Source: an uncultured bacterium (GTDB lineage Bacteria; Chloroflexota; UBA5177; JANWHV01). Taken from it: 64,000 bases of DNA. The notes beneath the pieces are model-generated. The model was not told where the DNA came from and did not search any database. It was given only the letters and a program-made list of their open reading frames with translations. The DNA lies in assembly GCA_963827235.1 (NCBI GenBank), contig CAWHAE010000008.1, forward strand, positions 320,001-384,000, written 5' to 3'. This document shows, piece by piece, positions 4,362-6,421 of this stretch (positions are counted from its first letter, which is position 1; each line of letters starts with the position of its first letter). A program made the translations under genes and the position numbers.

Positions 4362-4492
4362 CATCGCACAAACATCGCAAAAGATGGCCCCAATCAGCCA
4401 CATACGGAGAGCCTGCGTCAGCATTTTACGCTTGAGTACTCTGAGAGGGCCAGAGGAGATTCGACACCAAGACCTGCTGAACACTCTTCAGA
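4362..4492 (-). repeat. Degenerate direct-repeat copy of the tRNA-Ala 3' part plus its downstream arm (att-like relic)
   Basis: 4450-4492 matches 6353-6395 at 33/43 without gaps. CATTTTACGCT is identical at 4422 and 6327. 4362-4387 matches 6267-6291 at 20/26. Confidence 0.8.
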
Positions 4493-4515
4493 TGGCTTCC
4501 TCTGTCCGCAGGCTT

Positions 4516-4872
4516 CTACGCGACTACGGCCGCATGGGTGAGCTGGAAGCGATGCTGTCCCTCTTCGTCCGGCAGTTGTGTCAGCTCGAAGCTAGGGGGC
4601 TTGCGTATTTGCCAGGTGCGATACCCTTGCTCGATCAGCCATAGCCCGATCTGTTTCTGAATGAGATGCACACAGGTTGCAGGGCCGCGCTCCGAGTCCC
4701 AGAAGCTATCCTTGTCTATCCTCGCTTTGGCCCACTGATCCGTGTTGCCTAATCGCACATACACGAAGCCCCATTCTCGCTCGAAGACTCCGCGATCCTC
4801 GATCCGTATGTCGATGCCAAAGCCGTTCCCATCGGACCGGTGCTGGCCATTATTCCACGCTTCCACTTTCAC
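4516..4872 (-). CDS. Small hypothetical protein, Trp-rich
   Basis: GGAGGT RBS before a GTG start (MKVEAWNNG...); globular composition; co-oriented downstream of the PIN gene. Confidence 0.7.
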   Translation of the reverse strand: MKVEAWNNGQHRSDGNGFGIDIRIEDRGVFEREWGFVYVRLGNTDQWAKARIDKDSFWDSERGPATCVHLIQKQIGLWLIEQGYRTWQIRKPPSFELTQLPDEEGQHRFQLTHAAVVA

Positions 4873-4977
4873 CCTGTCACCTCCGTTCATCCGTTGTTCG
4901 TGAAATCGAGACTGCGGTCACGCTGGCGCAGCAGCTCCTCACTCGAGGAACCCGCGCTCTCCTGAACCGTGATGGGA

Positions 4978-5921
4978 TTACTGGTCCGCAGAGATCTGCC
5001 TAACTCTACCAAGCTGCCACCGCGAGGTCCCGACGCGAACAAAGCCGGGATACTCTGCCAGTATAGAGCGGATGTAGCTCACGACTGCACGCTGCACCCG
5101 CTCGGCCCCCTTCAGTGCGCGAGCAATGTCCGTGGCCGTGCACGGCTCCGGCGCTGCGGCGACGTACCGTGCAATGCGCTGAAGGTCCGTCAGGTGCTCC
5201 CCCGTCTGAACCGTGCTCTCCATCAGCATTTGCCGGGCCTTGTAGGTATTCAGCAGATGGTCGCTTATGGCCGAAAGAACGAGCTCACGTCCATCCGCTG
5301 ATCGCATCCAGAACTCGCGCAGCCTGCCGGTCCTGAGGCCGTAGATCGCGAGCCCGACACCGAGCCCGCTCGCGACAACAAGAGCAGGGCGAGCTCGCCG
5401 GTCAGTCAGCGCACTCTTCGCGATCGCACCGATGCCTGCAATGCCCCATGTGCTGCCGACCGGCAGCTGATCAGCTTCCGCCACGGTCCGGCCAGCTCGC
5501 GTGAGCGGCAGCCACTCCCTCGTCGTTAGGCCGGGATCGACCAAGTGACCATCTTCCGAAAGCGATATGGGCCCGAGAAGAAGAACAAGTGCGGCCGTGG
5601 CGGCATCATCTGGGTCGCGTGCCACCACCTGCTGCACACGACTGTCGTCGGGCAGTTCCGCCGGCATCGTCACATACAAGATGGCCGGCAAATACTCGCT
5701 GACCCAGCGCTGGTATGCGATCGCAGGATCCACCTTCGCCTTACGAGCTCGACGGGCCATGTGTTCTGGGACTTCGTCAAACACATGGGCCGACGCGTAA
5801 TAGCGACAGGATCCGACTCGAGCGCTTGCTACCAAAGCACCTGGGCGCCCACGGCGAACGGCGGACATCAGGTCATTCAAGAGGACATTGAGTCGACCAC
5901 ATACGGGTGAATCGACAGCAT
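4978..5921 (-). CDS. PIN-domain protein with hydrophobic hairpin and C-terminal winged helix (frameshift at about 5892)
   Basis: ATG at 5921 gives MLSIHPYVVD; restoring one base gives the PIN motif VVD-S-NVLL, then HVFDEV, RDPDDA, LSEDGHL. C-terminus PCTATDIARAL...VRSILAEYPGFVRVGTSRWQLG is wHTH-like. Confidence 0.7.
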
Positions 5922-6221
5922 GCCTCTGCTCTTCCCGAAGGTGGGGTTCGCGCGCCGAAAGCTGCTCACCAATGAGTGATTCGCCACGTCATTGCTGCCC
6001 TGCTCCTGTCCATCTGAGAGGCTCCGCATGTGGTCATGGAGCGAAGCCGGACGCTTGCCCTCCAAAGCCTTCAAATATGCCCAGGCACACCGTCGAGCGG
6101 GCTCCATGCGATGGAGTTCGCCGCAGGGCAGTTCTACCCACTTGCGTCGGTCTTTGTGGCCCAGGCGCGATATTCAGCCACGCGTCGCTCCCACCATAGC
6201 GCGGCCGCGTCGCCTCACCGG

Positions 6222-6230
6222 ATAGTATCA
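6222..6230 (-). promoter_or_regulatory. Extended -10 promoter element facing the PIN gene
   Basis: TGaTACTAT on the minus strand. Confidence 0.35.
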
Positions 6231-6283
6231 CCCTGGCGCGGCACGTCCGATGGGGACCAAATACGCCATGGCAAAAATACCAC

Positions 6284-6332
6284 AAAAATGGCGCCGGTCC
6301 GGACTCTTCAGTCACCAAACCGACGCCATTTT
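6284..6332 (-). terminator. Intrinsic terminator-like hairpin downstream of tRNA-Ala
   Basis: AAAATGGCGTCGGT / ACCGGCGCCATTTT, a 14-bp stem with one G-U pair, ending in a T-run on the minus strand. Confidence 0.6.
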
Positions 6333-6345
6333 ACGCTCAAAACGC

Positions 6346-6421
6346 TGGTGGACCAGAGGGGATTCGAACCCCTGACCTTCTGAATGCCATTCAGACGCGC
6401 TCCCAACTGCGCCACTGGCCC
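6346..6421 (-). tRNA. tRNA-Ala (GGC)
   Basis: 76-nt cloverleaf GGGCCAG...CTGGTCC-A-CCA with G3:U70; anticodon arm TCTGA-ATGGCAT-TCAGA; T-loop GTTCGAATC. Confidence 0.97.

Follow-up and report, generated by a model that had tools for sequence, protein, structure and literature searches.

A probable tandem stack of decayed integrative elements with defence-type cargo behind tRNA-Ala(GGC) in an uncultured Chloroflexota bacterium

Introduction

Cis-mobilizable elements (CIMEs) arise along a three-step route, described in passages of PMC5704250, in which integration is followed by decay to a CIME and then by a new integration. Here we examine a 64,000-nucleotide stretch of DNA from an uncultured Chloroflexota bacterium (G000:C8:320001-384000, hereafter the window; G000 is the source genome, and C8, C14 and C16 are its contigs), in which an intact tRNA-Ala(GGC) gene is accompanied by a decayed copy of its 3' half and by defence-type genes. 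The locus is probably a tandem stack of decayed integrative elements, all of one family, that inserted at this tRNA and have lost their backbones in the manner of CIMEs. Such a stack is a known kind of genome scar, not a new integron.

Several described systems come close to it. The CIMEs of ICESt1/ICESt3 and the tandems of integrative and mobilizable elements (IMEs) with CIMEs, in passages of PMC5704250 and PMC5812530, likewise have lost their integration genes, keep their attachment (att) sites, are stacked at one target and have chimeric junctions. In contrast to them, the present locus has no active element, no far-side arm or right attachment site (attR) was found, and the junction overlaps are unlike that of the tRNA although the cores are kept. 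In the island arrays at ssrA of Dehalococcoides, 15 of 31 islands are integrase-less tandem members without an integration module (PMC3146451, in part). The same passages describe tandem islands behind a stable-RNA gene, repeats of the end of that gene and an integrase 3' end at the left attachment site (attL), all as seen here. In those arrays the recombinases are of the serine type, the ssrA repeat is 20 bp long and the cargo consists of dehalogenases, whereas our locus has a tyrosine integrase, an anticodon-arm core, a decayed tRNA half with an arm, and defence-type cargo. Finally, the Islander survey (passages of PMC4383910) counts 2083 anticodon-centred islands among 3919, and 125 in tandems; its tRNA-gene islands share with our locus a tyrosine integrase, a tRNA restored by the island and displaced tRNA fragments. 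Islander, however, accepts a tandem member only if it has its own integrase and is 2 kb or longer; of the two units described below neither has an integrase and one is 1.9 kb long.

Our literature search for pseudo-tRNAs together with tandem islands found PMC3146451 only. No paper was found on an integron-like tRNA cassette array with anti-phage genes, nor on defence cassettes at a tRNA in Chloroflexota.

Repeated ends at the tRNA-Ala(GGC) locus

The features that define the repeated end are as follows; coordinates without a contig name are those of the window.

6346..6421, minus strand: intact tRNA-Ala(GGC), called by ARAGORN
6380..6394, minus strand: putative integrase core CTGA-N7-TCAG, an inverted repeat whose 7-nt overlap is the anticodon loop
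6283..6341, minus strand: conserved box and long hairpin ending in T runs (RNAfold -30.3 kcal/mol)
6267..6288, minus strand: two 11-bp direct repeats, putative arm-type integrase sites
4436..4492, minus strand: pseudo-tRNA junction (copy 1) with the core kept, a new 7-nt overlap and a broken T stem
4362..4435, minus strand: arm of copy 1, with box, decayed hairpin (-10.2 kcal/mol) and two 11-bp repeats
C8:318162-318302: pseudo-tRNA copy 2 and its arm, some 1.8 kb to the left of the window
C8:317766-318170: tyrosine-integrase remnant (PF00589), corresponding to residues 248-372 of an intact relative

The tRNA at 6346-6421 is the sole Ala(GGC) among the 51 tRNAs called in the genome, and its anticodon arm appears to be the integration site and the attL-type end of the newest element. 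An earlier reading of this DNA, made from the sequence only, had proposed a decayed direct copy of the tRNA at an offset of 1903 bp, and this copy is real. Its best 43-mer matches at 33 of 43 positions without gaps (from 4450). Over 4447-4492 the ungapped match is 35 of 46, and no other tRNA called by ARAGORN in the genome comes closer, the next being tRNA-Pro(GGG) with 30 of 46. The whole site (6255-6400) scores 48 against window positions 1-6200, a score reached by none of 500 dinucleotide shuffles. Model R2, which was itself built from these sites, gives 74.5 bits at 4353-4494.

The likeness said to continue past the tRNA end was also recovered: 4362-4387 and 6267-6291 agree at 20 of 26 positions with one gap, short repeats of 11-bp period lie in both flanks (6272/6283 and 4363/4374), and the identical 11-mer CATTTTACGCT stands at 4422 and 6327, at an offset of 1905 rather than 1903, with three occurrences in the genome. 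Compared pairwise without the tRNA part, the flank scores 23, which 85 of 500 shuffles reach and which is not significant alone. The reality of the flank likeness is thus supported by an alignment of 18 sites and not by the pairwise comparison.

The 18 aligned sites come from Ala, Pro and Gln tRNAs and from pseudo-sites, and all show one order: CTGA-N7-TCAG in the anticodon arm, the tRNA 3' half, the box, the hairpin and the two 11-bp repeats. CTGA and TCA are invariant. Hairpin energies in the 14 tRNA-linked sites range from -18.5 to -39.4 kcal/mol; the hairpin is probably a two-way terminator between the tRNA and a convergent integrase gene, and a simple terminator scan does not list the one at 6283-6341. 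In intact relatives the 11-bp repeat adjoins the integrase stop codon. By analogy with lambda- and Tn916-type att sites, the core and the 11-bp repeats would bind the integrase.

Five sites were found in the genome by blastn and nhmmer: the tRNA-Ala end, copy 1 (window 4353-4494), copy 2, the tRNA-Pro(GGG) end on C14, and a further copy on C14 that lies 2.4 kb behind that tRNA. Three of them form the tRNA-Ala array as direct repeats, with copy 1 at 1.9 kb and copy 2 at 8.1 kb from the tRNA, and this bears out the proposal that tandem units each start with a tRNA copy and an arm. Of co-oriented 3' fragments downstream of a tRNA, which belong to Islander's definition of tandem islands, there are two at tRNA-Ala and one at tRNA-Pro. 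The search to the left of the window that the sequence-only reading had suggested, for more copies and a tyrosine recombinase, yielded copy 2 and the integrase remnant, a C-terminal piece whose stop codon is overlapped by the copy 2 arm. The C14 copy adjoins an internally deleted integrase remnant (residues 211-247 plus the tail), so that two of the three pseudo-sites in G000 have integrase remnants beside them.

The C14 sites belong to a smaller second stack at tRNA-Pro(GGG) (C14:13969-16660, equal to L004:1969-4660), made up of an arm, a partial gene, two GNAT genes, a pseudo-tRNA copy with arm, and the internally deleted integrase. Two other core-like matches on C14 (268383 and 394393) have neither T arm nor arm repeats and were set aside as chance; the one at 394393 lies inside a coding gene.

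Cargo of the two units

Unit 1 lies between the tRNA end and copy 1, and unit 2 between copies 1 and 2. Their genes are listed below.

4978..5918, minus strand: PIN-domain gene of unit 1 (Pfam PIN_2, E 0.002; atlas PIN clusters, 0.94), with a putative start
4516..4872, minus strand: gene of unit 1 for a 118-aa protein of an unnamed family (205 cluster representatives at E<=0.001)
1..4215, plus strand: Avs2-type STAND NTPase gene of unit 2, starting 10 nt left of the window at C8:319990
C8:319557-319967: DUF6375 gene of unit 2 (PF19902, E 1e-48)
C8:318609-319538: radical SAM gene of unit 2 (PF04055, E 2e-15)

The genes of unit 1 run on the minus strand and those of unit 2 on the plus strand. 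Unit 1 had been read as a PIN gene and a small gene without an integrase, and indeed neither tblastn nor blastn detects integrase sequence in it. More generally, int, xis, rep, immR and immA, the backbone genes of the intact relatives described below, have no match in units 1 and 2, and the third end adjoins the broken integrase. The 118-aa protein matches no Pfam family, with a weak lead to EcoRII-N/B3 only (0.81); its family is widespread, and members are sometimes fused or duplicated.

The Avs gene expected in unit 2 is identified by PADLOC as Avs2 (E 2e-90), with 233 bits on NF041813, below the cut-off of 1000. Unit 2 as a whole is of the published Avap1-Avap2-Avs2 operon type, and passages of PMC11564622 describe the tested KpAvs2 operon as having the same three gene types (Avap1 radical SAM, Avap2 DUF6375, and Avs2). 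It differs from KpAvs2 in that its Avs2 frame is broken in the assembly. Avs2 of the KpAvs2 type has an N-terminal Mrr-family nuclease, and here the first 170 aa match no Pfam family. The Avs2 break lies near 493-499, and homologues of 1342 and 1415 aa cover both frames. The PIN frame is broken near 5889; in a relative that is 97/93% identical, P0037, the frame is uninterrupted there and the product scores above the cut-off for PIN_2. Both breaks may be real or may be assembly errors.

Intact elements of the same family

The integrase remnant belongs to a family of integrases of 375-380 aa. A metagenome scan gave 70 loci, of which the 25 at 56-100% identity were kept and the 45 more distant ones dropped; some of the loci are close kin and not independent. 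These loci identify the repeated unit as the end that small int-xis-rep-immR-immA elements have on the side of the tRNA. The order is tRNA, core, hairpin, arm repeats, an optional cargo slot, convergent integrase, xis, rep, immR and immA. In 18 of the 25 loci the integrase gene is followed at its 3' end by a tRNA on the other strand (Ala(GGC) in eight, Gln(TTG) in eight, Ser(TGA) in two). The integrase directly follows the arm in 11 of these 18, and 1.2-7.6 kb of cargo stands between them in the other seven. This cargo is variable and often of defence type, with TPR, FRG, ThiF plus E2, PIN and DUF347 proteins. Two loci, L084 and L085, have 98% identical tRNA and arm with different cargo. The rep gene (Phage_rep_O plus DnaA_N-like), an HTH_3 repressor and an M78 peptidase occur in 11 of 12 loci examined, and an HTH_17 gene precedes int.

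The analysis thereby defines a small element family that targets the CTGA/TCAG anticodon stem shared by tRNA-Ala(GGC), tRNA-Pro(GGG) and tRNA-Gln(TTG). The intact relatives, as distinct from the window locus, resemble ICEBs1 as described in passages of PMC5812530 (int, an HTH_17 xis, an HTH_3 repressor, an M78 peptidase and tRNA targets) and differ from it in a backbone of about 4 kb with the Phage_rep_O/DnaA_N-like rep gene. No relaxase or conjugation gene was found among 74 open reading frames scanned (65 of them from 142 candidates), the far ends of the elements lying outside the scanned DNA. The elements may be IMEs or phage satellites. The family was not found in our literature searches, none of which was aimed at it by name, and supplementary island tables could list it.

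Several loci deserve mention in their own right. L079-L102 and L109 are the elements of about 4 kb at tRNA-Ala, tRNA-Gln and tRNA-Ser. In the seven loci with cargo, it begins right behind the arm repeats and reaches nearly to the stop codon of the integrase, and insertion at this point is recurrent. The cargo slot of L084 (1688-4843) holds ThiF (E1-like), a prokaryotic E2, an HTH repressor and an M78 peptidase, a candidate ubiquitin-like defence module. L094:7853-9905 represents elements with a second arm type, another backbone (SWIM zinc finger, Rad52/22 family) and type I restriction-modification cargo. In two family integrases, P0013 and P0015, the reading frame continues across the arm and into the tRNA, on its antisense strand; their products are 442-446 aa long. 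Segments shared beyond immA, considered as attR candidates, proved to be type I restriction-modification cargo.

Successive integration and the comparison with integrons

In the reading that we prefer, each incoming element would recombine at the anticodon arm, its att site would supply what restores the tRNA, and the end left by the element before it (arm and 3' half of the tRNA) would be displaced outward. Backbones would then be deleted, leaving units of arm and cargo slot: the PIN gene with the small gene in one, Avap1-Avap2-Avs2 in the other. If the junctions long served as recombination sites, their core and arm would be kept and the tRNA-specific part would decay, and integrase-made deletions to secondary CTGA half-sites could give each core a new overlap and unrelated neighbouring DNA. 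Successive integration and decay would account for the duplicated arms, for integrase remnants in canonical position and for the units of arm and cargo slot.

The sequence-only reading had noted that one integration does not duplicate the arm and had gone on to an integron-like array of defence cassettes; successive integrations produce the duplication (PMC5704250, in part). That proposal, in which integrase-less cassettes bounded by pseudo-tRNA att sites are moved by an integrase acting in trans, is very unlikely. Units 1 and 2 do contain cargo only, they are bounded by direct-repeat sites with conserved cores, the array has an integrase gene at its far end, and content differs among relatives. 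In cargo-only units with an integrase gene at one end, the locus indeed resembles an integron. An integron, however, consists of IntI, attI, attC and Pc, and attC ends follow the pattern RYYYAAC...GTTRRRY. That pattern occurs at none of the five G000 sites on either strand. Against cut-offs of 265 for TIGR02249 and 435 for NF011946, two full-length relatives of the integrase reach no more than 38.5 and 36.8 bits on the former and 33.9 and 32.2 bits on the latter, far too little for IntI. The units are moreover oppositely oriented and so are not cassettes co-oriented under one promoter, and both large cargo genes are frameshifted in the assembly.

As for an integrase in trans or further left, the gene is there on the left, yet it is the C-terminal remnant, and the assembly (95.9% complete, 9% contaminated) has no intact cognate among 10 matches that could act in trans. 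The closest G000 integrases are 43% identical with a frameshift and a stop, and 32% identical; the intact relatives, for their part, each have their own integrase. Two of the more distant integrases of the same broad group lie on C16, one broken (98-1218) and one apparently whole (1193049-1194155, the 32% match); the broken one is at the contig end, beside a small HTH-like gene and with a repeat-bearing arm of its own.

Excision also bears on the proposal. G3:U70 sets the alanine identity of a tRNA, and the tRNA half of copy 1 has two of five T-stem pairs, C in place of U70 and no CCA. Recombination of the tRNA with copy 1, which would release the 1.9-kb circle envisaged by the sequence-only reading, would leave a tRNA with just these defects, including G3:C70. 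On the preferred reading, the stack today can probably move only if an intact relative comes in. In that event unit 2 could be excised harmlessly, because it sits between two pseudo-sites, whereas unit 1 could not, because the tRNA half of copy 1 is broken and tRNA-Ala(GGC) is single.

An accretion scar as such is ordinary. What the stack shows is a way for defence genes to accumulate at a tRNA: the arm-proximal cargo slot of each visiting element stays behind.

The same locus in relatives

In all four other genomes of the genus (G001-G004), rpmA adjoins the same tRNA. G001 has the same arm type as G000 (type 1), in a site 81% identical, and its cargo is different. The orthologous left flank of G001 is on a separate contig, at whose very end stand an integrase remnant and the second arm type. 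In G003 and G004 it is the second arm type that lies behind the tRNA, and in G002 a different sequence; the cargo that follows is unrelated. In G003 and G004, first considered as empty sites, the second arm type is present with 4 and 6 mismatches, matched by 0 and 1 of 3000 random windows. All five genomes of the genus thus have element-like ends at tRNA-Ala with different cargo. G004 further has tRNA-Pro, an arm and an integrase remnant, and truncated integrases stand beside arms in G001, G004 and L102 as well.

The comparison across relatives that had been proposed as a check therefore shows variable content, and because arm types and cargo differ among the genus genomes, the tRNA-Ala locus is a hotspot with turnover and not a fixed scar. 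The fallback reading of a single old scar, with fixed gene content and neither further copies nor an integrase, does not describe what was found. A related idea, that one old island had its own end duplicated or rearranged internally with no repeated integration, is the least likely of those considered. The grouping of the G000-type arms in the tree (94/87, unstarred) is in its favour. The three ends are, however, only 53-58% identical to one another, less than the G000 and G001 tRNA ends (81%); copy 2 is nearer to the C14 copy than to its neighbours; and the second arm type occupies a tandem position in G001.

Across the phylum, 3 of 401 genomes searched contain the exact site pattern, and all three belong to this genus; the viral contigs contain no match to it. 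The integrase profile at E<=1e-60 matches 5 of the 401, none of them a close intact member. With the integrase remnant as query, the genome-contig scan gave distant integrases only, as did the viral contigs. Model R1 has matches in 49 of 61 relatives; most are simply tRNA halves, and the matches were not taken as sites.

Conservation of the pseudo-sites

Several observations weigh against successive integration followed by plain neutral decay. Copy 1, copy 2, the C14 copy and L102 were each compared with one chosen tRNA-linked site. Core halves and AGGTC match at 54 of 56 positions, the T arm and acceptor at only 57 of 112 and the overlap at 9 of 28; box and arm repeats are intermediate (48/60 and 73/96). 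The difference between core and T arm plus acceptor gives a Fisher P of 3e-10, with positions and sites that are not independent. The first match to copy 2 was in its arm, and L102 was picked up through its integrase, so neither was chosen for its core. Copy 2, at the Ala locus, and the C14 copy, at the Pro locus, have 6 of 8 derived letters in common and group at 89/88 (unstarred). A CIME keeps att sites on both of its sides. At this locus each boundary has the core and one arm, and the far-side arm and a terminal attR are seen neither here nor in intact relatives: none of 12 comparisons upstream of the pseudo-cores places a far-side (P) arm above shuffles (lowest 29/300), a search of G000 past the end of the stack gave no tRNA fragment of attR type, and no tRNA 3' duplicate was found in the examined DNA of the 18 tRNA-bearing loci (blastn word size 7 with tRNA and flank, motif scans, model R2). 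Nor does any of these 18 loci have a second site within the DNA examined, and stacking is directly seen in G000 only.

These patterns say that the junctions were kept as recombination sites after tRNA function was lost and that one such site reached two tRNA loci. The kept cores with their decayed overlaps, together with the derived letters common to both loci, hint at elements that moved with a tRNA-incompetent att site. Between copy 2 and L102, 4 of 7 derived letters are common, and copy 2 and the C14 copy have similar integrase tails. Cis-mobilization together with integrase-made deletions can explain the conservation, and a piggy-backing subfamily can do so too.

In the latter case, family elements with a tRNA-incompetent att site would insert at core-like sites in islands behind the tRNA, with an integrase that tolerates mismatched overlaps as IntDOT and Tn916 Int do. 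Every pseudo-site would mark where one of these insertions begins on the left, and the stack would grow away from the tRNA. As an account of the present stack this is unlikely, though several of the observations point to it. The core is kept while the overlap is not (54/56 against 9/28, and 3/20 for the central five bases of the overlap by hand count from the alignment), unrelated DNA lies directly upstream of every pseudo-core, the derived letters and similar integrase tails of copy 2 and the C14 copy would follow from it, L102 repeats the anatomy in another organism, and overlap-tolerant tyrosine integrases are known, namely IntDOT and Tn916 Int (PMC2817482 and PMC5812530). On the other hand, no pseudo-site has an intact integrase beside it, all three with an adjoining integrase having remnants; the derived letters may stem from a cis-mobilized old junction inside a composite element; and the case draws on four known pseudo-sites and a tree with no starred branch.

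The broader claim, that some subfamily of small tyrosine-integrase elements no longer restores the tRNA and, with a pseudo-tRNA att site, a conserved core and a free 7-bp overlap, inserts behind tRNA-anchored relatives, is a shade less doubtful and still rather improbable. If true, defence arrays would arise in which any incoming family integrase can excise or swap an inner unit (the 6.2-kb Avs2 operon bounded by copies 1 and 2, for instance) and leave the tRNA unharmed. Were the pseudo-sites working att sites with free overlaps, tandem islands could turn into cassette-like defence arrays by a simple route, and there would also be a source here of integrases that are less strict about the overlap.

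Neighbouring genes and minor observations

L102:1813-2933, the locus in another organism, has the anatomy of copy 2, with a pseudo-tRNA core, an arm and a 45-aa integrase remnant. The open reading frame upstream of it resembles, by eye only, the end of a DNA methyltransferase.

On the other side of the tRNA, outside the stack, lies the host flank.

6441..7138, minus strand: rpmA (L27) and rplU (L21), upstream of the tRNA (Pfam)

The G+C content of the units (0.615 and 0.594) is slightly below that of the flanks (0.64). On the integrase side of the tRNA-Ala stack in G000, a GDP-mannose dehydratase gene (C8:316516-317523, equal to L001:16516-17523) has 75% DNA identity with a gene at L080:5310-6311, which is on the integrase side of a tRNA-Gln element; this gene may travel with these elements.

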